Numbered from the stretch's first letter, positions 18,201 through 64,000 are shown. The stretch: 64,000 nt of DNA from Thermodesulfobacteriota bacterium (GCA_965215275.1 OZ244044.1:1472001-1536000); one strand, 5' to 3'. Program-made: numbers and translations. The notes: generated from the letters alone by a model not told the origin.

Positions 18201-18608
18201 GGGGGCTATATACAATGTTGCCCAAATTGTATATAATGGTGACAAGAGATTAAAACATAAGAACTTAACAAGATGAACAATCCTTCTACCCCCCCCCATC
18301 AAATACGCTGTTTTATGGTGATTGTTTAGATGTAATACAACAATGGTCAGAGGGTTTTGTTGACCTGTGCTACCTTGACCCACCGTTTAACTCTAAGACA
18401 ACTTACAATATCCTATTTGGGGAAAAAAGTAACAATAGAACTCAAGCCGTTGCTGTTAAAGATACATGGTCTTGGGACGATAAAGCACTTGAACGAGTAA
18501 GTAAGATAAAAAAAGCCGTAGGTCATGGTGCTCATCAGTCTATAACAGGATTACATTCAAAAAAGAATTGATGCTTTTTTATTTTGGGCAACATTGTATA
18601 TAGTCCCC
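18201..18608. mobile_element. MITE-like non-autonomous IS1595-type element (408 bp)
   Basis: 26-bp TIRs: GGGGGCTATATACAATGTTGCCCAAA (18201-18226) and the inverse of GGGGACTATATACAATGTTGCCCAAA (18583-18608), 1 mismatch; same GGGGACTATATAC end as the intact IS at 44018-47071; no clear TSD. Confidence 0.75.
18273..18571 (+). pseudogene. Truncated, frameshifted N6/N4 DNA methyltransferase (beta-class N-terminus)
   Basis: After C9 (18289-18297) one frame reads PSNTLFYGDCLDVIQQWSEGFVDLCYLDPPFNSKTTYNILF...KDTWSW; DPPF motif IV present, motif I absent; ATG 18273 is one C out of frame. Confidence 0.8.
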
Positions 18609-22297: not shown

Positions 22298-22437
22298 CCC
22301 CTTACCCGTATATCTCTTATAATGCGTGGTCTTAACGCCTGTATTTTTTGGGAATTATATATTTAACCAAACAGAAATAAAATATGGACCTTGTATCTTT
22401 ATAGCTGTTAACCTGTTATGAGATATTATTCATCCAC

Positions 22438-22467
22438 TTGACATTCGTTCAGGGTACAAAGTAAAAT
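22438..22467 (+). promoter_or_regulatory. Sigma70-type promoter of copy 3
   Basis: TTGACA-18nt-TAAAAT; ATG 9 nt downstream at 22477. Confidence 0.75.
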
Positions 22468-22476
22468 AACAAAGCT

Positions 22477-24195
22477 ATGAACATCTCATTTAGAATAATA
22501 CCCCCCCCATATAAGTCATTAATATCCTTTCTCCTTCTTCTGTGCCTTGTGTCCATTGAGGCATATGGACAGATCAATAACTGTGACACCAGTACTACCG
22601 GTTTCAATGATCCCTTATACGGCTGTCAGTGGCATCTGAAAAACACGGGACAGCTTGGGGCTGTAACTGCCTCTGGAGAAGATATAAACGTAGAAGGGGT
22701 CTGGGACGATAACAGGTTCGGTGCCGGAATTAACGTGGCGGTGGTGGATGACGGTATGCAGACGGGTCATGAGGACCTTTCTGATAATGTAAATAACAGC
22801 CTTAACCATGATTATTCAGGAGGCAGTGACGTATACGACCCTTCAAAAGCTCGCGGAACGCGTGTATCGGGAGTTATAGCAGCAGCGGGAGATAACGGTA
22901 TTGGAGCAAGAGGAGCGGCACCACGGGCAGGCATCTACAGTTATAACCTGGCCGGTAATTTAAACAGCGCTAACGCAAAGGACGCCATGACCCGTAACAG
23001 AGATACAACGGCTGTATCCGTCAACAACTGGGGACCGAATGACCTGCCTCTTCTCAGGGAGGCTTCATCAGAGTGGGAAGAGGGAGTGGAGACGGGTATA
23101 AGTGAAGGGTTTGGTGGTAAGGGGGTATTTTATGTATGGGCGGCCGGGGACGGAGATAAAAGGGCAGATCAGGCTAATTTTGATGAGTATTCCAACTACT
23201 ACGCAGTAACCACCGTATGTTCGGTGGATGGAGAAGGAAACAAGAGCTCTTTTTCAGAGGAGGGAGTAAATCTGTGGGTATGTGCTCCAGGTGAAGATAT
23301 TACAACTACTGACAATAACGATGGATATATTTTTGATGCGAGTGGAACGGCATATTCAGCAGCGCAGGTTGCAGGTGTGGCGGCACTGATGAGAGAGGTA
23401 AACGGAGACCTTGGCTGGAGGGACATAAAGCTTATACTTGCAGCTTCAGCCCGTAAGAACGACGGTTCCGACACGAACTGGGAGACGGGAGCACGGAAAT
23501 ACGGTTCTGATACAGAGAGTTATAATTACAATCCTAGGTACGGTTTCGGCGTGGCAGATGCCGACGCGGCAGTAAAGCTTGCTGAAAGCTGGACTAACGT
23601 TCCAGGGATGAGAACTCAGACCGTTTCCTCGGGAACTGTTGATATGGAAATCCCCATCCACAGCAATGGAGCAGACGGAGAAGTTACTGCCAGACTGACC
23701 ATACCGGATAATGAGTTTTTTACAGAATTTGTAGAGATAGAACTTGATTCCACTTACGGTTACTTTCCAAGTTTAGCTATACAGATAGCGTCCCCTGACG
23801 GTACTGTGTCTGAACTTACCGAGGAGTATTATGCAGGAGCTTTCTCAATTATAAATACCACTCCACTCACTGCAAGCGACTTTATTTACACCGACAGAAC
23901 TCATCGTTTTGGTTCAGCCAGACACCTTGGAGAAGACCCTGCCGGAGAATGGACCTTGAAGATAACTAACACTGATCTGTTTTCTTCAGGCACAGCAACT
24001 TTACACTCGTGGAGCATTAAAGTCTATGGTCACAGTAAGGAAGATACAGTTAGTGATACGTTTGGAGGAGGATGTGTGCTCTCAGATCAGAACGAAGCTG
24101 TTTCTGATCTGCTCACAGCAGTGGCATCTCTGATGCTTATACCCTTATCAGCAGCGATCAGAAAGAAGGTAAGGTCTCATATAAACACCTGGTAA
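22477..24195 (+). CDS. S8-like pseudoprotease copy 3 (minimal form: signal, S8, P domain, GGGC-TM tail); in frame
   Basis: VAVVDDG, RGTRVSG (His->Arg), AAGDG (oxyanion Asn->Asp), SGTAYSAA (Ser->Ala); C8 at 22501-22508. Confidence 0.85.
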   Translation: MNISFRIIPPPYKSLISFLLLLCLVSIEAYGQINNCDTSTTGFNDPLYGCQWHLKNTGQLGAVTASGEDINVEGVWDDNRFGAGINVAVVDDGMQTGHEDLSDNVNNSLNHDYSGGSDVYDPSKARGTRVSGVIAAAGDNGIGARGAAPRAGIYSYNLAGNLNSANAKDAMTRNRDTTAVSVNNWGPNDLPLLREASSEWEEGVETGISEGFGGKGVFYVWAAGDGDKRADQANFDEYSNYYAVTTVCSVDGEGNKSSFSEEGVNLWVCAPGEDITTTDNNDGYIFDASGTAYSAAQVAGVAALMREVNGDLGWRDIKLILAASARKNDGSDTNWETGARKYGSDTESYNYNPRYGFGVADADAAVKLAESWTNVPGMRTQTVSSGTVDMEIPIHSNGADGEVTARLTIPDNEFFTEFVEIELDSTYGYFPSLAIQIASPDGTVSELTEEYYAGAFSIINTTPLTASDFIYTDRTHRFGSARHLGEDPAGEWTLKITNTDLFSSGTATLHSWSIKVYGHSKEDTVSDTFGGGCVLSDQNEAVSDLLTAVASLMLIPLSAAIRKKVRSHINTW

Positions 24196-24495
24196 TTCAC
24201 TTCTTTCCAGGACACTTAATTAACTGAGATCTTTCCCGTCAGATATAACGTTGTTAAGAACATCGTCTTTGTTCATTCAGCATGGCCGTCTGTATAATTT
24301 CTTTTGGGAACTATAATAGGAAAGTTGACAAAAATGAGGGTTACCCTGAACGGTTGACAGGCTGTATTTTACCTTTATTATTATCAGTGGGAACTGAATA
24401 CCGTCAATTACAGTGAACGGGATAAAAAAGAGAATGATCCCCTGCGTCCTGAATATCATTGTCATTGCAGGAAAGGAAAGAGAAAGAAATTATAC

Positions 24496-24525
24496 TTGAC
24501 ATTCGTTCATAATACGAAGTAAAAT
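24496..24525 (+). promoter_or_regulatory. Sigma70-type promoter of copy 4
   Basis: TTGACA-18nt-TAAAAT; ATG 9 nt downstream at 24535. Confidence 0.75.
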
Positions 24526-24644
24526 ATCAGTGTTATGAAAAATTTCATGAAAAATTCAAACATAAAAACAAAAACACGTAGTTCCATTACCCCCCCCCGT
24601 GTATACCTGACCTTTCAGCCTGGTATAAGTGTTTTTTAAGAACA

Positions 24645-27600
24645 ATGTTTAAGATAATACCCCCCCCATCTAAGTCATTACTAACTTTAGTCTTTATTCT
24701 TCTGTGTATAATGGTAATAGCTGCAAAAGGGCAGAGCAGCCTGGAAGAAACATTATCTGAATGCAGAGGTAACAGTGCAGACGTGGAAGATCCGTTATAC
24801 GGATGTCAGTGGCATCTGAAGAACACGGGGCAGTTTATTTATTCAGGAAAGAGAATAACATCAGGAGAAGATATAAACGTAGAGGGAGTGTGGAACGAAG
24901 ACGTATACGGTTCTGGAATTAACGTAGCAATAGTAAGTGACGGTATCGACCTTTCACATGAGGACCTTTCTGCAAACGTCCGTTCCGGACTGAACTATGA
25001 TCTGTCTGACAGTTCATCTTTTAGTGGGACACGAGCGGCAGGAGTTATTGCAGCAACTGGATATAACGGACTGGGAGTAAGAGGAACAGCACCGGGTGCG
25101 AGTATATACAGTTACAGGTTATCCGGTGATCTCAGTGAAGCGGACGCGGTGGTCCGTAATAAGGAAATAACCGCAGTATCGGTTAACGGCCGGGGATCTG
25201 AGGACGGAGCTTTTTTTCAGGAGGCTTCATCTTCCTGGGAAGAAGGAGTGGAACTTGGAATAAGTAAAGGGTTTTATGGAAAAGGTGTGTTTTACGTCCG
25301 GGGAGCAGGGGACGGGCATGAAAGCGGAGATCAGGCTAATTTTAATGAATATTCCAGCTATTACGGAGTAACAGCCGTTTGTTCAACTGACGGTTATGGA
25401 AAAAAGAGTATTTTTTCAGAAGAGGGAGTAAATCTATGGGTATGTGCACCTGGTTCTGATATTGTAACCACAGATAACAACAACGATTACGTTGTAACTT
25501 CCGGAACATTTCTATCAGCTTCACAGGTCGGAGGAGTGGCAGCACTGCTGAGAGAGATAAACGGAGATCTGAGCTGGAGGGATATAAAGCTTATACTTGC
25601 GGGTTCAGCACGGCAGAACGATATTTTTGACCTTAGCTGGGAGACTGGAGCGGTAAAATACGGTTCTGACGTGGAAAGATATAATTATAATCCTAAGTAT
25701 GGTTTTGGCGTGGTAGACGCAGAAGCAGCTGCAGAACTTGCAGGAAGCTGGAAAGGCGTTGGAGAAATGAGGACCGTTACCGCCTTTTCAGATAATGAGA
25801 TAACAATTCCTTATGGAGAAGGAAATGGAGAAGGAGAGGCAGACGGGGTACTTGTCTCCAGACTTATGATCCCGGACGTGGAGGAAATATTTACGGAATT
25901 CGTTGAAGTTGAACTTGTTCTCTCGTGTGACTGCTTACAGGACCTCAATATAAAGCTAACCTCTCCTTCCGGGACAGTGTCTGAACTTGTAAGGGAGTTT
26001 TCAGGGGAGGAAGAAGACGCTGATATCAGTTACCTGAGAAGAACACATCGTTTCGGGTCGGCAAGACACCTCGGAGAAGACCCTGCCGGAGAATGGAACC
26101 TTAAAATATCCGATACTGCTTCCGGAGATGAAGAAGATACAGAAAACACTGTTACCTTACACTCATGGAGCATTAAGGTATACGGGCATGTTTTTTTACA
26201 GGATTTTGGCAAGGAGATCATTACCAAGGCTTTCAGCTTGGGAAGTATCTCTAATAAAACTTACAGAGAAGGAGTTCAGATAACACCATTAGTGCTGCCT
26301 GAGGCAACTGGAACTAATCTGTCAATTACTTACAGTTTAAGTCCTGCCCCACCTGCCGGATTGACCTTTGACAAAACCACCCGAACGATAAGCGGAACAC
26401 CAACTGCTGTAGGCAGGACAAGGCATAATTATAGGGCAAGCATTCCTGGCCAACAACTCAATAGAAACTTTCATATCACGGTAGAAAATAACCCACCCAC
26501 CTTCGGCAGTGAGACTATCCCAAAGAAGAGATATATTCAAGGGACAAATGTAGGTCTTCCAGTAACGCTGCCTGCTGCTACCGGAGGAAATGGAACTTTA
26601 AATTACAGTTTAACCCCTTCATTACCAACTGGATTGGAATTTAATCCTGCTACCCGAGTGATAAGTGGAACTCCAACTGATATTATACAAACTCCTGGTC
26701 GACTTTATACATATAAGGTAACGGACAGTGATGGAGATATAGATAGTTTGAGTTTCCGTATTGAAATATTCAGGGACCAAACGCCAACTTTTAGTGGTGT
26801 GATGGTAGATGATCAGGTGTATACAGCAGGGGTTCAGATAACACCATTAGAGCTGCCTAGGTCAATATTAGGGAATAGCCCATCACACAGTATTACTCCT
26901 GAATTACCTGATGGATTGATTATTGAGACAGAGACGGGCGGTGACGGTGGAATGAGAAGAATAATCATCATACGCGGAACACCAACTACAGCAATGCCTG
27001 AGACTGAGTATACATGGAGAGTAAGAGACACAGATGGAGATACGGACGAGTTAACGTTCAGTATTACTGTATTAGCAGAACCAAACACAGAACCAACCTT
27101 CGGCAGTGAAACTATAGATAACAAGGTGTATATAAACGGAGAGGCAGTAATGGAAACACTGCCTGAAGCAACGTCAGGGAATGCACCATTAACTTACAGT
27201 TTAACTAATATTGGTTCAACTGCTTTGACTTTAGCCGTGGACTTTGATAAGAACACCAGAGTGTTAAGTGGAACACCCAATGTTAATGTACACCTACTTC
27301 CTATAACTCGTGCATATACATATAAAGTAACAGACAATGATGGAGATACAGCAGAGATAACGTTCAGTATAACAATAGAAGAAGACAGCGAGCCGGACTT
27401 CAGCGTGACGACGATAGAAGATCAGGTGTACATGGGGAGATCAATAAGGTTGCCGGTAGCAACGGGAGGGAATGCACCGTTAGTATACAGTATAACGCCT
27501 CCCTTACCTCCTGGGTTGAGATTGGACAGAGACACAGGGGTAATAAGCGGGACGCCCGCGAGTGCGTCGTCTGAGAGGACCTACACGTACACGGTAATGG

Positions 27601-27842
27601 ACAGGGACGGAGACATTAAAGAGTTGACCTTCAGGTTCAGTGCAGAGGTTCCTTCTACTCCAGGACCAGGACCAACAAGAACGTCAGGTAGTGATCCAGG
27701 CGGAGGTGGAGGAGGATGTGCCGTCTCGGATCAGAGCAGCGCCGTTTCTGATATTCCTGGAGTAATGGCATGTCTGATACTTATACCCGTGTCGGTATTG
27801 ATCAGAAGGAAGGGAAGAGCTCGGATAAGGACCTGGCAATGA
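24645..27842 (+). CDS. S8-like pseudoprotease copy 4 with five Ig-like repeats and GGGGC-TM tail; probable true start 24535 is out of frame at the C9 tract
   Basis: VAIVSDG (Asp->Ser), SGTRAAG (His->Ser), SGTFLSAS (Ser->Phe); C9 at 24590-24598, C8 at 24660-24667. Confidence 0.85.
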   Translation: MFKIIPPPSKSLLTLVFILLCIMVIAAKGQSSLEETLSECRGNSADVEDPLYGCQWHLKNTGQFIYSGKRITSGEDINVEGVWNEDVYGSGINVAIVSDGIDLSHEDLSANVRSGLNYDLSDSSSFSGTRAAGVIAATGYNGLGVRGTAPGASIYSYRLSGDLSEADAVVRNKEITAVSVNGRGSEDGAFFQEASSSWEEGVELGISKGFYGKGVFYVRGAGDGHESGDQANFNEYSSYYGVTAVCSTDGYGKKSIFSEEGVNLWVCAPGSDIVTTDNNNDYVVTSGTFLSASQVGGVAALLREINGDLSWRDIKLILAGSARQNDIFDLSWETGAVKYGSDVERYNYNPKYGFGVVDAEAAAELAGSWKGVGEMRTVTAFSDNEITIPYGEGNGEGEADGVLVSRLMIPDVEEIFTEFVEVELVLSCDCLQDLNIKLTSPSGTVSELVREFSGEEEDADISYLRRTHRFGSARHLGEDPAGEWNLKISDTASGDEEDTENTVTLHSWSIKVYGHVFLQDFGKEIITKAFSLGSISNKTYREGVQITPLVLPEATGTNLSITYSLSPAPPAGLTFDKTTRTISGTPTAVGRTRHNYRASIPGQQLNRNFHITVENNPPTFGSETIPKKRYIQGTNVGLPVTLPAATGGNGTLNYSLTPSLPTGLEFNPATRVISGTPTDIIQTPGRLYTYKVTDSDGDIDSLSFRIEIFRDQTPTFSGVMVDDQVYTAGVQITPLELPRSILGNSPSHSITPELPDGLIIETETGGDGGMRRIIIIRGTPTTAMPETEYTWRVRDTDGDTDELTFSITVLAEPNTEPTFGSETIDNKVYINGEAVMETLPEATSGNAPLTYSLTNIGSTALTLAVDFDKNTRVLSGTPNVNVHLLPITRAYTYKVTDNDGDTAEITFSITIEEDSEPDFSVTTIEDQVYMGRSIRLPVATGGNAPLVYSITPPLPPGLRLDRDTGVISGTPASASSERTYTYTVMDRDGDIKELTFRFSAEVPSTPGPGPTRTSGSDPGGGGGGCAVSDQSSAVSDIPGVMACLILIPVSVLIRRKGRARIRTWQ

Positions 27843-27844
27843 GT

Positions 27845-28480
27845 TCCTTTCAGGGACGTTCATGAGAGAGGACCGCGTAATGGTCCTCCCATGTACCCGT
27901 CCGCTTAAGGTAAAGGCAGCGTTACCGCGCACTGGACCGTCCCTGTATTCTGATGAGACGACGGGAGAAGCAGAGGAAGGCATCAGCACGGGTGATCTTC
28001 CGGACGTTCCGTTTACTGAGGTATACCGTTCCCCGTTATAATCCCGTTGTCAGCGTTCCCGGCAGGATACCTTTACAGGGAAAGGGAGCAGGTAGATATA
28101 AAGGCAGGTACACGTCCGGGGATTAGTCCTGAAGGTCTGAAAAGGTTCCGTATCGTGTAATTTCAGCCACGGGGAGGCGTTCACGGTTCCTGGAACGGGA
28201 GGACTTCAACGTCATGGACACGCGGACTTGCCGCTTCGGGGAAAGCGGGGACCCTGACCGAAGAAGGCAGGGAAGTGATCAGGGTTATACTGACCATGCC
28301 GACCGGTCTGAGACAGATAAGGATAAGGTCAGTAAAGGAAAAATAAAAGGTAAACCTCGGGTGAAACCTGCCGCCGCTGATCATAAAGGAAAAACAACGG
28401 GCAATGGATAGATCATCAAGGATGTTTTTAAAAACGGGATAAATCCCGCATAAACGACCTGAAAAAAACAACTAAATAAG
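27845..28480 (-). pseudogene. Possible heavily decayed IS1595 transposase remnant
   Basis: Weak by-eye similarities: VFKNILDDLSIARCF vs FFKMFPDEGLARKCF; EYRDGPVRGN vs EYIREQAHTN; frameshifted LKR/GYMG vs LKRGYTG; lies just inside the right TIR. Confidence 0.3.
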
Positions 28481-28636
28481 AACTGAACAAAAGGTTTAAA
28501 TTGGCAGCAGGTCCTAAAGGAGATCATTTTATAAAAGAAGTTAATGATCAAAGAAAATTATGGGACCTGTCAACTTTCCTTTATAGTTCCCTTTCTTTTT
28601 TGATTTTTCTTTATGGTGTGTTCATAATTATCCGAT

Positions 28637-29395
28637 ATGGCTATGTCCACGCTTATCGTTTATGAACCTCTGGATAGTTTTGGAGAGCAAAGTGAGTACT
28701 GGCTTGAATATTCCAGGTTTTACGAGACGTACTGGTGCGGTCCGACCTCTCCTTTCGGGGTATGGTTCGGCAATGAGTATAAGAATTTCAGAGAATCCCT
28801 GTCCAGGCACATGAACCTTGATGATGCTGATATAAAGGACTGCTTCTTTCTGAAGAAGGGAGAGAAAGGTAAAAAGGAGTATTTTATTGCTCCGCTTAAT
28901 AACTCTGAAAACGTTTTTTCATCTGATAATTCGATCCCGCATGAATGGTTTGCAATGTTTGATAAATGTCAGAGAAAGAACTTTTATACCCACTGGGGGT
29001 TCAATACGATCCACTATGAAGGGTCTCTCCATGATGCCAGGGAAAAGCTCAGGGAAAAAAGAGAAATTATCAAGGATGTATCCTCCTCAGGGATGGATAT
29101 TCCGTTCGCCGGATACCTGGATTATTTAAGTGGAGGGATCGATAATATAATAAGCTGGCTTGACGGGTTTAAAATGGGCGGTTTTGTCATTTTGAACTAC
29201 GGAGAGATATGCACGCATATTCATATTTCCACTTTGCACAATGAGAACAGCGTTGAAGAGATATCCAGCTTTTTGAAACTGCTGAAGGAGAGAAAGGTAG
29301 AGGAAGCGGATTCGGTCTTAAGATTATTTTTTAAGAAGTGGGAAGACATAACGCTTAAGTGTAAAGGTGGAGCGGACAGCGGCCTGTTGCAGTAG
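28637..29395 (+). CDS. Hypothetical protein
   Basis: 252-aa ORF with typical composition; no motif recognised. Confidence 0.7.
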   Translation: MAMSTLIVYEPLDSFGEQSEYWLEYSRFYETYWCGPTSPFGVWFGNEYKNFRESLSRHMNLDDADIKDCFFLKKGEKGKKEYFIAPLNNSENVFSSDNSIPHEWFAMFDKCQRKNFYTHWGFNTIHYEGSLHDAREKLREKREIIKDVSSSGMDIPFAGYLDYLSGGIDNIISWLDGFKMGGFVILNYGEICTHIHISTLHNENSVEEISSFLKLLKERKVEEADSVLRLFFKKWEDITLKCKGGADSGLLQ

Positions 29396-43221: not shown

Positions 43222-43613
43222 CAAAAAAGGCAACTGACAAATCCCTGAAGACTTCGATTTCAAGGTTTTTTCTAAAAAATTGTATTCTTCTTGTCTTTTG
43301 TGAAGTTGATATTGGAATCCAAAACCATTTCATACACTAAATATAGACTTCTTAACGGCCGACAATGATTTTTCGCAAAGTGTTTTTTTTAAACCTTTGC
43401 AGACGGGAAGACTGGATTAGGAACTTACGATAAAAGCAGAGTGGAACAAGTTAGATAAAGCGGTAATATCATTCCTTAATACAAGGTACAGTTTCATAAA
43501 AAACCGCCTAAACTAATAAGAGAACAGTTGGATCAGCGGTTTAACCTGACTGTAAATTCAAAGGGTAAGCCATCTGTTAAAAAAGCTAAATACTAAAGAA
43601 AGCTAAAGTATTT

Positions 43614-43639
43614 TGTCAACTTTCCTAAATAATTTCCCC
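43614..43639. repeat. Solitary TIR-like end related to the TIRs of the 24306-28591 element
   Basis: TGTCAACTTTCCTAAATAATTTCCCC shares TGTCAACTTTCCT with 28568-28591. Confidence 0.5.
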
Positions 43640-43867: not shown

Positions 43868-44254
43868 ATTAAAACTCCTTTCCTTAAAATAAAGATCAGT
43901 CTTGTCCCCTTCAGTTGTGTCGTAAATTCATAAATAGAAGAGTGCATTCTCTATTTCTTTAAAGATAATGAAAAATCCCCGTTTGTTAAGTTATTTTTAT
44001 AATTCCTAAAAACTTTAGGGGACTATCTACTTAAGTATCCCAAATTAAAAAAATAGTTATTTATTTTTTTGGAACTCCTGTCTGAAATCCTCGTATATTT
44101 TCCTGAATATCCGATGTGTCATCTTTCCTTTGTTTTCTTATCTTTTTAACAGGTTTAACAGGAGAGACAACAGCTTTTACTATATCATCAAAAGAACCTG
44201 GTATATGTGGAATTATCTTTTGCTTTCTACCCATTGGATTATTTTTTCTATTCG

Positions 44255-44857
44255 TTATTTTAGTTCTAGAAACCTACTTATAGCTCTGTCAAAAACATTT
44301 TTTATATCTCTATATGTCCATACAGTTACCATATCAGCATGTTCTGCTGTAGTAGTCCATTTTCTATGTGTTGGATTTTCACGTGTCGGAACAGGAGTAA
44401 GAGTCTTGCCTCTGCGTGGATTATCTATATAATCCTTTATATCTTTTTTTGTCTTTAGTGATAATTGAATAGTAGTAGGTGTAATTCCTAAAAAGATTAT
44501 AAAAGCATAATTATAATTTACTGGTATCCAATTAAATTGATATTTTCGTTTACTATCTAATGAAGCAAGTTTAACTTCTACCCTCTCTGGTGAAGTATTA
44601 TCTTTAAGAGTAACAAGTAAATCTGTATTATTACCGCCTCTTTGTCTTTGTCTACCTACAAATTTATTAACATAACCAAATTTAGACAGCCAATCACTTA
44701 CGATCTTCTCTCCAAAATCTCCTTTTTTAGGATTAGTAATCCGTTGTATATCACCATATGTTCGGTTTTCCCAAACTTGAACTATGCTATCAGATTCCGC
44801 TACTTCTTTTAAAATTTTTATAACATCATTTTGTATTTCTTTATCAAGAAATAACAT
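44255..44857 (-). CDS. Putative PD-(D/E)XK restriction endonuclease
   Basis: KGDFGE...TDLL...VEVKLAS...FNWI pattern; starts 8 nt after the MTase stop. Confidence 0.65.
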   Translation of the reverse strand: MLFLDKEIQNDVIKILKEVAESDSIVQVWENRTYGDIQRITNPKKGDFGEKIVSDWLSKFGYVNKFVGRQRQRGGNNTDLLVTLKDNTSPERVEVKLASLDSKRKYQFNWIPVNYNYAFIIFLGITPTTIQLSLKTKKDIKDYIDNPRRGKTLTPVPTRENPTHRKWTTTAEHADMVTVWTYRDIKNVFDRAISRFLELK

Positions 44858-44865
44858 GTGAGTAT

Positions 44866-46011
44866 TTAATCCATAAATCCAACTTTAATCAACTCATCAT
44901 AAATAATATCTTTTCTTAAACTTCTACTGTTATTTGTAGATGTATGAACTACACTTGCCCAATCATGATTTTTGATAAACTTAAAAACACTTTTCTTTTT
45001 TCTTTTTATTACAATACCATAACCGTCATTGTAAGGTATATCGTAAAAATCCGTTGTGGCTACAGCGGTTTCTCTAGCCCAGAAAGTTCTGGGTAAATAT
45101 ATATCACACTTACCTATCATATTCATACGAGATGGAAAACGAGAAGGTTTGTATGGAATACAGATGTTATAAATATCTACATAAGTCCTACAAGACTTTT
45201 CATTTACAGGTTTATATGAAGAAGGAGTAGATTTTGCCCAAACTTGAAATACGGTTTTAACATTAATTTCTTCTCCATTAGGAAAAATAAAAGGATTATC
45301 GTTAAGTGTTTCTGTATGTAATAATATATATCCCATTTTTATCAATCTGTTTTTGCACGAACCTTTGCCAGTACTATCAAATATTGGAGGAAGTATAAAA
45401 GCTACATAGTCAGCAAATTCAAAAGATTTGACTACAAAATCCAAAGCGATCTTACCGTTTCTGCCAAAAGGAGGATTACCTATAACCACATATTTACCAG
45501 CAGGAGGTTGCCAAGTTAAAAAATCAGCTTGGATAATACCATCAATTAACTTATCAGTAAGTGGGGACTTTTTAGGTTGTATTTCAATCCCTAACCGATT
45601 ATTTTCGGGTAATAGAGAATAAAAATGACCACAACCTGCACTAGGCTCTACAAATGTATAATCTGAAATATCTATATTATATTTATCTAATGTTTTGTAA
45701 AATCTATTTATACAACTTTTAGCTACATCTGGCATTGTGTAGTATTGGTCAGCTTGTTTAATTCCAAGATTATACTCTCCATTTAAATTCAATATCCTTA
45801 ATAGATCGTTTCTATAAAAATCAGGAACTTGTTTTATTCTATCCCATCTGTCCACTGTTCCTTTATGAACAAGTAATAAATCGGCAATTTCTCTATTGCT
45901 TTTACTTTTTTGTAAATGAGCAAAAAGAGATAGTTCATCCATATTACTTGTTTGATATTCATCAAATATACTATCTGGAGTTGTATAAAATATTTCTTCT
46001 AAAGGTAACAT
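44866..46011 (-). CDS. Amino (probably N6-adenine) DNA methyltransferase with N-terminal HTH
   Basis: DQYYT motif X, VEPSAGCGHF motif I, IGNPPFG motif IV (gamma order); SNREIADLLLVHKGTVDRW HTH. Confidence 0.85.
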   Translation of the reverse strand: MLPLEEIFYTTPDSIFDEYQTSNMDELSLFAHLQKSKSNREIADLLLVHKGTVDRWDRIKQVPDFYRNDLLRILNLNGEYNLGIKQADQYYTMPDVAKSCINRFYKTLDKYNIDISDYTFVEPSAGCGHFYSLLPENNRLGIEIQPKKSPLTDKLIDGIIQADFLTWQPPAGKYVVIGNPPFGRNGKIALDFVVKSFEFADYVAFILPPIFDSTGKGSCKNRLIKMGYILLHTETLNDNPFIFPNGEEINVKTVFQVWAKSTPSSYKPVNEKSCRTYVDIYNICIPYKPSRFPSRMNMIGKCDIYLPRTFWARETAVATTDFYDIPYNDGYGIVIKRKKKSVFKFIKNHDWASVVHTSTNNSRSLRKDIIYDELIKVGFMD

Positions 46012-46012
46012 T

Positions 46013-46993
46013 TTAACCTATTAACTCCTTATATTTTAATCTTTTACCTTCCAATCTTTTACCTTCCAATCTTTTACCTTCCAATCTTTTAATAACCTTT
46101 TTAATCTGATCCATAGTAGGTAAAGGTCTGTTATTATGCCTTCCAGCATATTCATCTACATAGCGTTGTAGATGTTTCCTGCTCATGAAGTGGTATATCC
46201 CAGTATACCCTCTTTTAAGCATAGACCAGAAACTTTCCATCCCGTTGGTATGTGCCTGTTCCCTGATATATTCACCTACTCCATGATTAACTGTCTTGTG
46301 TTTATACCCTTTCTTGTTCAGTCCACTATACCCTCTGTTCTCGTCTGTATAAATAGTTGATTCAGCATCTACAGTTTTATCTATCAAACCTTCTAATGTT
46401 TTACTATCTACAACTTCAGTTACCTTTGCTTTTACCTTCTTATCTATCCTTGATTTAATACCTACTACTGCAGATTTAGTTTTAGTGCTTCTGCCTTGAG
46501 TCCCTTTAGTTCTATTGGATTGGTGCTTGTTCCTTTCAAGTCCACCAACATAGGTCTCATCAACTTCTACAGGAGATAACAACGGATTATCTGACTGCTC
46601 ATCAAACGATTCTCGTATCCTGTGACCCAAGAACCATGCTGTCTTCTGCGTTACCTCTACATCACTTGAAAGTTTTAAACTTGAAATTCCTTTAAGATTG
46701 GTATTCAGCAAGTAAATAGCCATTAGCCATTTATGAAGTGATATCTTGCTTTTGGCTAATACTGTGTTTGTTCTCACGCTGAAATACTTACGGCAATCTC
46801 TGCATCTGTAAGGCATCGTAGGATGTTTTATTTCTATTGTATTAAAACTTCCACAGTGAGAGCAGTATCTATCCTTACCATCTTTACCCCACTTCTGCTC
46901 CTCAAAACACTTTCTTGCTAATCCCTCATCTGGAAACATTTTAAAAAACTCATACAAACTAACTTTATCTTGTTTCGTTCTTTTTCTCATCAT
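46013..46993 (-). CDS. IS1595-family transposase
   Basis: Zn ribbon CSHC...CRDC; VEVDETY, IYTDE and HTNGMESFWSMLKRG motifs. Confidence 0.95.
   Translation of the reverse strand: MMRKRTKQDKVSLYEFFKMFPDEGLARKCFEEQKWGKDGKDRYCSHCGSFNTIEIKHPTMPYRCRDCRKYFSVRTNTVLAKSKISLHKWLMAIYLLNTNLKGISSLKLSSDVEVTQKTAWFLGHRIRESFDEQSDNPLLSPVEVDETYVGGLERNKHQSNRTKGTQGRSTKTKSAVVGIKSRIDKKVKAKVTEVVDSKTLEGLIDKTVDAESTIYTDENRGYSGLNKKGYKHKTVNHGVGEYIREQAHTNGMESFWSMLKRGYTGIYHFMSRKHLQRYVDEYAGRHNNRPLPTMDQIKKVIKRLEGKRLEGKRLEGKRLKYKELIG
46038..46091. repeat. 15-bp tandem repeat (AATCTTTTACCTTCC x3.6) encoding KRLEG x3
   Basis: Read directly from the sequence. Confidence 0.95.
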
Positions 46994-47170
46994 GGATATT
47001 ATACTACCATATATTATTAGTTTTTACAAGTAACTAATTTGAAAGTTTGGATACTTAAGTATATAGTCCCCAAACTTTATAGATAGCTGAGAATGAATTA
47101 ATGTTTTTTTCAATGAGTTTTAAACAGCTTCTGATTTGTCAAAATGACTTATACCACTTGTTAGTTTTTA

Positions 47171-60640: not shown

Positions 60641-60779
60641 GAGCTGAGAGTTGCAAAGGCGCAGTTGCTGATTACTAAGAAGATGAAGTATGATGGGCAG
60701 TATACGTAAAGATTGGAAATTATATACAATAGTAAACAAGGTATCAACGGGAACAGTATAACGTGTAGAGATAGTCAAG

Positions 60780-61495
60780 GTCTTCACTTGATAAACCGGC
60801 AGTTTGATTTATGGAGATGTTCGCTGGTGAGAGATCAGTGGGAAAACGGTTTGAAAGGCCGTTGTGTAGAGACGGGAGATATTGGCGTCATTGCGTCAGT
60901 GTCCGAAGTGGCAGTATAACAGCAACGGGCAATATATCGTTCAGGAAAAGGTTATTGGCAATATACCTGATAACTGCAGACTTAAAGGTATTATCCGGTC
61001 GTAAAACGGGAAGGTATACGGGAACTGTGCAAAGACAACTTGGTTTTGCTGCACGGGACAAGAAAGGCGTTTGAAGAGTAGTCAGATAATCCCTTACTGT
61101 CTCCAACAGAGGCAGGTGAAGTTCTATGTTGGCGGGGGTGGAAAAGAACGAACATGCCAGTAAAGCAAAGGAGGGAATACAAGGGAGAAGCACAAAGGAA
61201 AAGTCATCATCAGCAGGTATAAGATTAGGAGCAGACAGGAGGGTCAGGGTAAAGGCAACTGAAGCCATAAAAAGTGAGGCATCATAAGGTATGACGGACG
61301 GAAGTGCAGGTCTATATCAAAAGGGCAGAAAGTTTCCGGTCCGCGTTGCAAGAGATTTTGCAGGCGTGTATCACAAGATGTCAGGGAAACGTTTACAAAG
61401 ATGTACAGATGAGCATGCAGGAAGGCGTAACAACGGAGCATTACCGACCGTGGATCAGATCAAAGACGTGATCAGGGGATCGTGTGGCAAGAGAG
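60780..61495 (+). pseudogene. Decayed IS1595 transposase
   Basis: Frameshifted fragments match the intact transposase: LLAIYLITADLK vs LMAIYLLNTNLK; SDNPLLSP; GIQGRSTK; GVYHKMSGKRLQRCTDEHAGRRNNGALPTVDQIKDVI vs GIYHFMSRKHLQRYVDEYAGRHNNRPLPTMDQIKKVI. Confidence 0.88.
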
Positions 61496-61569
61496 ATCAG
61501 ATACTGCTGATGAATGGTCCGTGTATCCTGAATATCTTTATCATTGAAAAACAGAGAAAGAAGTTATAC

Positions 61570-61598
61570 TTGACATTACATCAGAACGGAAGTAAAAT
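61570..61598 (+). promoter_or_regulatory. Sigma70-type promoter of copy 6
   Basis: TTGACA-17nt-TAAAAT. Confidence 0.75.
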
Positions 61599-61608
61599 AT
61601 AAAAATGT

Positions 61609-64000
61609 ATGAAAAACATGATGGACTCTATCCCCCCCCCCCCCGTCAATATAGTAGTTTAACGGGCAGTTCCCGCCGGAACGGCAGGAACCTTGTACTT
61701 TCCCTTGTCCTTTTTCTTCTGTGCATAATGATCACTGTTGCAGAGGGACAGGACAGCGTAAATGATCCGTTCTCCGAATGCAGGGTTATCAGTGCAGACG
61801 CGGAAGATCCGCTGTACGGATGTCAGTGGCATCTGAAGAACACGGGGCAGCTTGGTTTTTCCGGAAAAGCAGTAACAGCAGGAGAAGATATAAACGTAGA
61901 GGGAGTGTGGAACGAAGACGTATATGGTTCTGGAATTAACGTAGCAATAGTAAGTGACGGTATTGACCTTTCACATGAGGACCTTTCTGCTAAGGTCCGT
62001 TCCGGACTGAACTGGAGTTATTTTGAAAGAAATAATTCTGAAGAGAACAGTTCTGAAAAATATAATTCAGAAAGAGATGATCATTCAGACGGTTCATCCT
62101 TTACCGGAACACGAGCGGCAGGAGTAATTGCAGCAACTGGATATAACGGACTGGGAGTAAGAGGAACAGCACCTGGTGCGAGTATATACAGTTACAGGTT
62201 ATCCGGTGATCTCAGTGAAGCTGACGCAATGGTCCGTAATAAAGAAATAACCGCTGTATCGGTTAACGGCCGGGTATCTGAGGACGGAGCTTTTTTTCAG
62301 GAGGCTTCATCTGTCTGGGAAGAAGGATTGGATACGGGAATAAGGGAAGGGTTTTATGGGAAAGGTGTGTTTTACGTCTGGGGAGCAGGGGACGGTCACG
62401 AGAATAACGATCAGGCTAATTTTAATGAATATTCCAGCTATTACGGAGTAACAGCCGTTTGTTCAACGGACGGCTTTGGAAAGAAGAGTATATTTTCAGA
62501 AGAGGGAGTAAATCTCTGGGTATGTGCACCTGGTTCTGATATTGTGACCACAGATAACAACAACGATTACGTTGTAACATCCGGAACTGTCCTTTCAGCT
62601 TCACAGGTTGGAGGAGTGGCTGCACTGCTGAGAGAGGTTAATGGAAATCTGAGCTGGAGGGATATAAAGCTTATACTTGCGGGTTCAGCAAGGCAGAACG
62701 ACGTTTCTGACATGAGCTGGGAGACTGGAGCGGTTAAATACGGTTCTGACGTGGAAAGATATAATTATAATCCTAAGTATGGTTTTGGCGTGGTAGACGC
62801 AGAAGCAGCCGCAGAGCTTGCCGGAAGCTGGAAAGGCATCGGAGAGATGAGGACCATTACAGCTTCTTCCGATAATGAACTGACAATTCCTGATGGAGAA
62901 GGAGAAGCAGATGGAATACTTACCTCCACACTTGTGATACCGGACGTGGAGGAAATATTTACGGAATTCGTTGAGGTAGAACTTGTTTTTTCTCATGACC
63001 GCTTGCAGGACCTTGATATAAAAATAACCTCTCCTTCCGGGACAGTTTCTGAACTTGTCCGGGAATTTTCAGGTGAGGAAGAAGACGCTGAGATCAGTTA
63101 TGTAAGAAGAACACATCGTTTCGGGTCGGCTAAACACCTCGGAGAAGACCCTTCCGGTGAATGGACCCTTGATATATCCGATACTGCTTCCGGAGATGAA
63201 GCAGATGAAGAAAATACTTTTACCTTACACTCCTGGAGCATTAAGGTATACGGGAATTTTTATCAAGGACCTGGCAGGGAGATAACTACTAAAGCTTTAA
63301 ATTGGGGCGGACAGACAGTTCAGGATCAGGTGTACAGAGTAGGAACTCAGATAGCACCGTTACAGCTGCCTGAGGCGACCGGGGCAGAAGGAATAACGTA
63401 CAGTATGACACCTGATTTACCTGCTGGGCTGGAGTTTAACGATACCACCCGGGTTATAAGCGGAACCCCAACTAAATCGCAGTCTAATGAACGTTATCAA
63501 ATTGTTGCCAGAGACGAAAATGGAAACGTGAAGGGTTTAGCGTTCCATATAAGGGTAAGGTTCCGTAACTCCACAATACCGAGTTTCAGCGATACCATCC
63601 CGGATCAGAACTACGTAACGGGGAGAGAAATAACGCCACTGGTGTTCCCTAGTGCAACGGGAGGGGATGGTCAGTTAAGGTACACTTTTAACGGCACTTT
63701 AACTAACTTACCAAATGGATTGAGACTTACCAGTGATCCGTTCAGGATAAGAGGAACACCAGGTAGTGGTAGTGCGGGGACAAGTACCTGGCAATATACC
63801 GCTACTGACTCAGACGGGGATACTGCTACACTTGAGTTCAGGATAAGGATAAAAGCTGCAGCTGACGTTCCGAGCTTCGGCGGTCAGATGATAGATGATA
63901 AGTTTTATACGGCAATGGTTCAAATATCACCATTCACGCTACCTCTTGCAACGCAAGGAACTGGAATTACACTCAGGTTAACCCCTAATTTACCTGATGG
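61609..64000 (+). CDS. S8-like pseudoprotease copy 6 (runs off the window; absent from the ORF track), at least three Ig-like repeats
   Basis: LVLSLVLFLLCIM signal, DPLYGCQWHL, VAIVSDG, TGTRAAG, SGTVLSAS (Ser->Val), P domain; C13 at 61632-61644 puts the homologous ATG 61609 out of frame, though ATG 61605 is in frame. Confidence 0.85.

Follow-up and report, generated by a model that had tools for sequence, protein, structure and literature searches.

The window analysed here is a 64,000-nt stretch of the chromosome of a Thermodesulfobacteriota bacterium (GCA_965215275.1 OZ244044.1:1472001-1536000); positions without a prefix are counted from its first letter, and those prefixed C1 are chromosomal. 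At 24306-28591 it contains a 4,286-bp unit in which one pseudoprotease gene of the S8 family, designated copy 4, lies between terminal inverted repeats (TIRs) typical of insertion sequences (IS) of the IS1595 family and is flanked by a target site duplication (TSD). The features of the unit are as follows.

24298-24305, unstranded: left TSD copy, TTTCTTTT, overlapping the right end, now decayed, of the copy-3 unit (from comparison of paralogous 3' ends)
24306-24330, plus strand: left TIR, GGGAACTATAATAGGAAAGTTGACA, IS1595-type, 25 nt, one base longer than the right TIR
24331-24644, plus strand: upstream region common to other family genes, with a C9 run at 24590-24598
24645-27842, plus strand: copy-4 cargo gene, 1065 aa, the sole gene of the unit
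27843-28384, plus strand: host fragments joined in a non-coding mosaic, strongly biased to A:T>G:C changes; no transposase
28385-28591, plus strand: IS1595 3' end, 84% identity over 208 nt to C1:1101021-1100815
28568-28591, minus strand: right TIR, IS1595-type
28592-28599, unstranded: right TSD copy, TTTCTTTT, lying in the promoter region of the host gene at 28637

The two TIRs have the same sequence except for the additional base in the left one, and the TSD is exact (8/8, with TTTCTTTT on either flank), which bears out the repeats and the 8-bp duplication reported by an earlier sequence-only reading of the stretch. The target duplication of the IS1595 family is 8 bp, and the resident transposase-bearing IS1595 elements have TSDs that match at 7-8 of 8 positions. 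The TTTCTTTT 8-mer occurs in the genome at a frequency of 1.4e-4 per position. Exact 8-bp TSDs were found for 22 of the 195 near inward pairs of IS1595-type ends and for 2 of the 2952 distant control pairs, so the TSD of copy 4 is unlikely to be due to chance, and the suspicion of a low-complexity match can be set aside. Contigs from public runs cross the junctions without differences (left, X1 and X6; right, X1 and X5); X1 is possibly the source sample of the assembly, and the runs crossing both junctions come from more than one study.

A survey of open reading frames (ORFs) and domains and a tblastn search with 16 transposase queries detected no intact transposase inside the unit, in agreement with the sequence-only reading; the best E values were 0.17 in the tail behind the gene and 0.025 across the whole unit. 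The remnant of a transposase proposed at 27845-28480 was rejected on the E value of the tail and on its matches to host loci. The sources of these host fragments are C1 at ~603.4 kb, 154376-154468, 155118-155172 and the 3' end of a FAD/NAD oxidoreductase gene (~155717-155880), which adjoins another IS1595-type end. Behind the gene, only the final 207 bp of the unit are derived from an IS, retaining a relic of the small ORF that lies downstream of the transposase, and on the left side the 25-nt TIR is the sole IS-derived DNA. The cognate end family of the TIRs is that of the IS1595 element at C1:1100815-1102101, which has a transposase of the PF12762 type and to which both the TIR and the 207-bp right end are homologous. 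The resemblance to the intact IS1595 element of the window (44018-47071) holds for the outer ~10 nt and for the 8-bp length of the TSD but goes no further, and that element was rejected as the cognate of the copy-4 ends; the outer end motif is common to all IS1595-type ends in the genome. The genome-wide search for the TIR with a listing of cargo, as the sequence-only reading had proposed, returned pseudoproteases, a frameshifted IS1595, two TnpB units (8/8 TSD) and also MITEs (miniature inverted-repeat transposable elements) as the enclosed content; a scan without indels misses most copies, the right end of copy 4 included.

A sigma-70-like promoter is predicted upstream of the cargo gene at 24496-24525 (by consensus only). 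The encoded protein has a signal-peptide-like start, an S8 domain, a P-domain, He_PIG repeats and a C-terminal membrane tail, and is predicted to be a surface protein. The catalytic D, H and S and the oxyanion N of its S8 domain are all substituted, and it is accordingly not counted as an active protease; all four residues are retained in 6 of the 57 family genes. A C8 run at 24660-24667 is in frame (ON). Such poly-C runs after the start codon are present in 49 of the 51 dead genes and in none of the 6 intact protease genes, and the 49 run-bearing genes comprise 9 ON, 38 OFF and 2 without a nearby ATG. Indels in C runs are present in public contigs; they are not assignable to copy 4, and homopolymer sequencing error is a possible source. 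The dN/dS values (ratios of nonsynonymous to synonymous substitution rates) of the family cargo are 0.29 (228 pairs) and 0.26 (227 pairs), and the cargo is therefore maintained by selection. Among 26 loci of distant cargo relatives, mostly in Dehalococcoidia genomes, there was no transposase match and no poly-C run; one weak IS1595-type end score was obtained, and catalytic motifs are present in most.

A sister of the copy-4 unit is located at C1:1028600-1033127. The non-coding ends of the two units are identical at 331/339 and 741/749 positions (~98-99%), and the units have in common both the junctions between gene and IS and the tail of host fragments. The flanks of the sister are unrelated to those of copy 4 and contain a TSD of their own (7/8); the unit therefore probably moved as a whole. 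The synonymous divergence (dS) of the coding interiors is 0.14 in the S8 domain and 0.40 in the P-domain, the repeats are rearranged, and the core of the sister clusters with two other paralogs in a quick IQ-TREE tree of the S8 family. Because the coding interiors diverge far more than the non-coding ends, the shell was probably copied recently and its cargo reshuffled by recombination.

We interpret the copy-4 unit as a transposase-less, IS1595-ended cassette with one dead-protease gene, likely moved whole by a borrowed transposase (probability roughly 0.78). According to the available text of PMC6199540, a mobile insertion cassette (MIC) has two IS-derived inverted repeats, no transposase and a passenger, and depends for its movement on a related transposase acting in trans. 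The copy-4 unit has two IS-related inverted repeats and a passenger gene, lacks a transposase, and is accompanied by a TSD and a second site; it therefore has the structure of an IS1595-derived MIC, presumably mobilised in trans. It differs from a composite transposon in having a single TIR per side and no inner ends, and from a transporter IS (tIS) only in the absence of its own transposase, of which copy 6 (see below) has a decayed one. The genome has 28 IS1595 transposase matches, 14 of them in open frames of at least 301 aa, and these 14 other long-frame transposases may cross-recognise the copy-4 ends.

The S8 family comprises 57 genes that occupy 8.8% of the 2-Mb chromosome (one tally reads 54, just 54 candidates having been scored there). 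Four relatives at the family level have 0-1 S8 genes and 0-3 IS1595 matches, two of these genomes being 80-83% complete. The S8 genes and IS1595 have thus expanded side by side in the present genome, which speaks for the cassette interpretation. The association of the S8 genes with IS1595-type ends was evaluated with a model of such ends, for whose training 9 ends were taken, all of them from transposase-bearing elements; 304 ORFs with free flanks served as controls, and two score levels, looser and stricter, were applied. At the looser score, an inward end was present within 1 kb at 36/57 S8 genes and 93/304 controls, and both ends with a TSD of at least 7/8 at 6/57 and 3/304, respectively; at the stricter score, either end was present at 34/57 and 67/304. 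TSDs of at least 7/8 were observed in 6 of the 15 true left-right pairings compared with 4 of the 210 mismatched ones (p 5e-6). Eight family genes, which occur in each of the two main branches of the tree, have both ends and a 7-8/8 TSD, namely the six from the end-model test together with copies 4 and 6, which were missed by that test because of the extra TIR base (copy 4) and because the right end is more than 1 kb away (copy 6). Two family genes are immediately preceded by a decayed transposase (E 4e-39 for copy 6, and 2e-17), and the front part of the locus at C1:403.6 kb is arranged as in copy 6 (left end, decayed transposase, family gene). Bracketed ORFs outside the S8 family number 10 of 1259 and form three protein groups, of each of which the representative tested (n = 1) is TnpB; with one representative tested per TnpB group, the single-gene cassette cargo of the genome is of two kinds only, pseudoproteases and TnpB.

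The sister with its TSD, the eight bracketed genes, the enrichment of ends and the two loci with a decayed transposase support, for part of the family, the proposal of the sequence-only reading that it spreads as passenger cargo of IS1595-type elements, with the step in trans being one that we infer. Borrowed transposases likely scattered much of the S8 family across the chromosome.

Several observations weigh against this interpretation. The sole cognate transposase, that of C1:1100815-1102101, is frameshifted. At the stricter score, the excess of both ends (5/57 vs 12/304, p 0.16) is not significant and that of both ends with a TSD (3/57 vs 2/304, p 0.03) is weak, and the counts of ends are not independent, as the paralogs are of common ancestry. 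There is no IS1595-type end within 1 kb of 21/57 S8 genes, and other S8 cassettes have asymmetric ends that are alike at 17-19 of 25 positions. No empty site was found in a close strain, and none of the 15 displayed joints (of 62) skips the copy-4 element. In a search of three comparison genomes (G001-G003) for an empty site of the sister, its flanks lay on different contigs in G001 and far apart in G002, and so there is no empty site for the sister in G002. In favour of the interpretation, the host genes flanking copy 4 are adjacent in both G001 and G002, with no copy 3, no copy-4 gene and no ends between them; these genomes are distant, and G001 is 80% complete.

A different explanation grants that the cassette is mobile but holds that the family spread by recombination and segmental duplication, with nearby IS ends marking AT-rich hotspots shared by both. 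The 21 genes without ends and the non-significant excess of both ends at the stricter score are in its favour, as are the cluster of copies at C1:397-436 kb, the near-identical pairs and the evident gene conversion. However, the enrichment upstream of the genes concerns inward ends (11/57 S8 genes vs 27/555 controls) and not outward ends (3/57 vs 67/555), and the TSDs enclose individual genes at sites unrelated to one another, a pattern unexpected from co-location in hotspots. We regard this explanation as improbable. The cluster of copies suggests local duplication as a second route, so that the cassette route would account for part of the family and local duplication for some of the remainder.

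Less probable still, at long odds, is that the gene entered an IS1595 copy or MITE that was old and no longer mobile, in which case the ends and the TSD are those of the IS and have never served to move the gene. This was the alternative named in the sequence-only reading. The left side retains the TIR only and the other side no more than 207 bp of IS sequence, as though the interior had been replaced, and IS1595 elements do insert beside family genes, as exemplified by C1:1100815-1102101 upstream of one of them. Such an entry may describe how the first shell was formed, but it fails to explain two sites that share the junctions and the host-fragment tail and yet have different flanks and separate TSDs; seven further genes are bracketed in like manner. 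For copy 4, it is largely refuted by the sister. The notion of an assembly artefact or a chance low-complexity match, to which the T-rich 8-mer and the repetitive family might lend themselves, can be dismissed in view of the control pairs and of the contigs from more than one study that cross both junctions.

With trans-mobilised cassettes as the preferred reading, the following course of events may be proposed. An IS1595 transporter element would have captured a kexin-like gene behind its transposase, a layout that persists at copy 6 and at C1:403.6 kb. The transposase would then have decayed or been deleted, and new shells would have been assembled from nearby IS1595-type ends and host fragments, as in the tail of copy 4. 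Resident transposases could have inserted the shells between genes at AT-rich positions, with 8-bp duplications as the result. After insertion, the ends would have decayed, recombination between paralogs would have shuffled the coding interior, and the poly-C runs would set the ON or OFF state.

The captured DNA has an unusual substitution pattern. The host fragments of the tail show 75 A:T>G:C and 7 G:C>A:T transitions in 355 aligned bases, and when one piece was replaced by a longer relic (C1:408.9 kb), changes were found at 118/327 A:T sites and 10/173 G:C sites. The A:T>G:C changes occur on both strands and at every codon position (13, 10 and 7 transitions at positions 1, 2 and 3). The bias was observed at 27843-28384, at C1:408.6-409.1 kb and in the decayed transposase at 60808-61494, while decayed IS copies elsewhere have the opposite bias (66 A:T>G:C vs 127 G:C>A:T). 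In IS relics lying no farther than 1.2 kb from S8 genes, 176 A:T>G:C and 93 G:C>A:T changes were counted, compared with 643 and 787 in distant relics. A genome-wide A:T>G:C mutation bias was rejected as the cause on the basis of the decayed IS copies, the synonymous singletons in the S8 cores (12 vs 10) and the presence of a gene for MutS, and a GC-richer relative as donor of the fragments is unlikely in view of the spread of transitions over the codon positions. The bias may represent a single episode, because most of the signal comes from relics near one locus and copies thereof. A broader scheme, in which IS1595 serves as the dispersal engine of a variable coat, with transposition seeding sites, conversion shuffling them, poly-C runs switching them and A:T>G:C hypermutation acting on cassette DNA, is speculative and we would not bet on it.

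Other elements in the window and elsewhere on the chromosome are related to the copy-4 unit.

22350-24301, plus strand: copy-3 unit, with its own IS1595-type left end, a right end that has decayed and, between them, a pseudoprotease gene (22477-24195)
44018-47071, minus strand: intact IS1595 transporter element, with a transposase (46013-46993), two passengers and an 8/8 TSD
60715-64000 and on to C1:1540173, plus strand: copy-6 element, with a left end, a decayed IS1595 transposase (60808-61494), a pseudoprotease gene and an 8/8 TSD
C1:155905, 202418, 714634, 735945, 1441464, 1616480, 1618044, 1624687, 1724035 and 1834243: TnpB-like cassettes

The site that received the copy-4 element appears to be the right end, already decayed, of copy 3, as judged from their overlap. 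On its other side, the gene at 28637-29395 encodes a conserved 252-aa protein without a Pfam or NCBIfam match, present in 30 of the 31 genomes of the order that were searched. The element at 44018-47071 belongs to a different end subfamily from copy 4 and is a possible helper for the copy-4 cassette; its passengers are a methylase-like 381-aa gene (motif recognised by eye) and a 200-aa gene without a Pfam match. A solo end of the copy-4 TIR family lies beside it at 43611-43638. The copy-6 element is 7.5 kb long and consists of a left end, the decayed transposase, the pseudoprotease gene, an inner IS1595 and a right end; the inner IS1595 carries, besides an intact transposase, two passengers, one DNA-methylase-like and one of 162 aa. 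A ~410-bp MITE with 32-bp IS1595-type ends is situated right behind copy 2 (18201-18607; C1:1490201-1490607). The TnpB-like cassettes are ~10 transposase-less units of three cargo groups with IS1595-type ends of several subfamilies and 7-8/8 TSDs. A 4.5-kb unit at C1:17470-21955, bounded by ends of the copy-4 TIR family with an 8/8 TSD, contains three other ORFs and resembles a MITE-bounded composite. Short gene-less relics, in which 5' or 3' flanks of the family are combined with IS-type ends, occur at C1:633.3-634.1, 627.1-628.7, 890.5-890.8 and 1014.6 kb, and would be consistent with the birth and death of cassettes.

For large variable surface-protein families of host-associated bacteria, the usual explanation is tandem duplication together with gene conversion. 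The S8 family bears direct scars of transposition, in a series that leads from tIS with a decayed transposase to complete cassettes and solo ends and on to empty derivatives, and its route of expansion can therefore be tested by strain comparison. The literature searched, which largely lay outside subscription journals, yielded no account of a chromosomal gene family expanded by IS1595 cassettes.

Transporter IS of the IS1595 family were reportedly described by Siguier et al. in 2009. As far as the available text shows, such tIS are similar in joining IS1595 ends with passenger genes, and copy 6 and the C1:403.6 kb locus keep their order of end, transposase and passenger; a tIS encodes its own transposase, whereas the copy-4 unit does not (bioRxiv 10.1101/2021.05.26.445724). 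MIC231 of Bacillus cereus, as described in the available part of its source, likewise has IS inverted repeats, no transposase and one passenger gene, but its ends are of IS231/IS4 and its stated size is 0.7-3 kb, in contrast to the IS1595-type ends and 4.3 kb of copy 4; its mobilisation in trans has been demonstrated, while that of copy 4 is deduced (PMC6199540). Unlike the passenger of MIC231, the copy-4 cargo belongs to a family of 57 genes on one chromosome. The closest precedent, on the accessible portions of these sources, is the transcription activator-like effector (TALE) genes of Xanthomonas in MICs with TnXax1 (Tn3) ends, where a repeat-rich paralog family is also dispersed by transposase-less cassettes; 45% of the TALE genes are in MICs and others have solo ends, with some TSDs kept (PMC4337579). 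The TALE MICs have Tn3 ends and a 5-bp TSD and carry an injected effector, whereas copy 4 has IS1595 ends and an 8-bp TSD, and its family is predicted to encode surface pseudoproteases with poly-C frame switches (PMC4337579). In further contrast to what is reported there, the S8 family is dispersed within one 2-Mb chromosome, and its ends are of several subfamilies and often asymmetric. With this family, the precedent of the TALE MICs would be widened to include IS1595 and expansion within a single chromosome.

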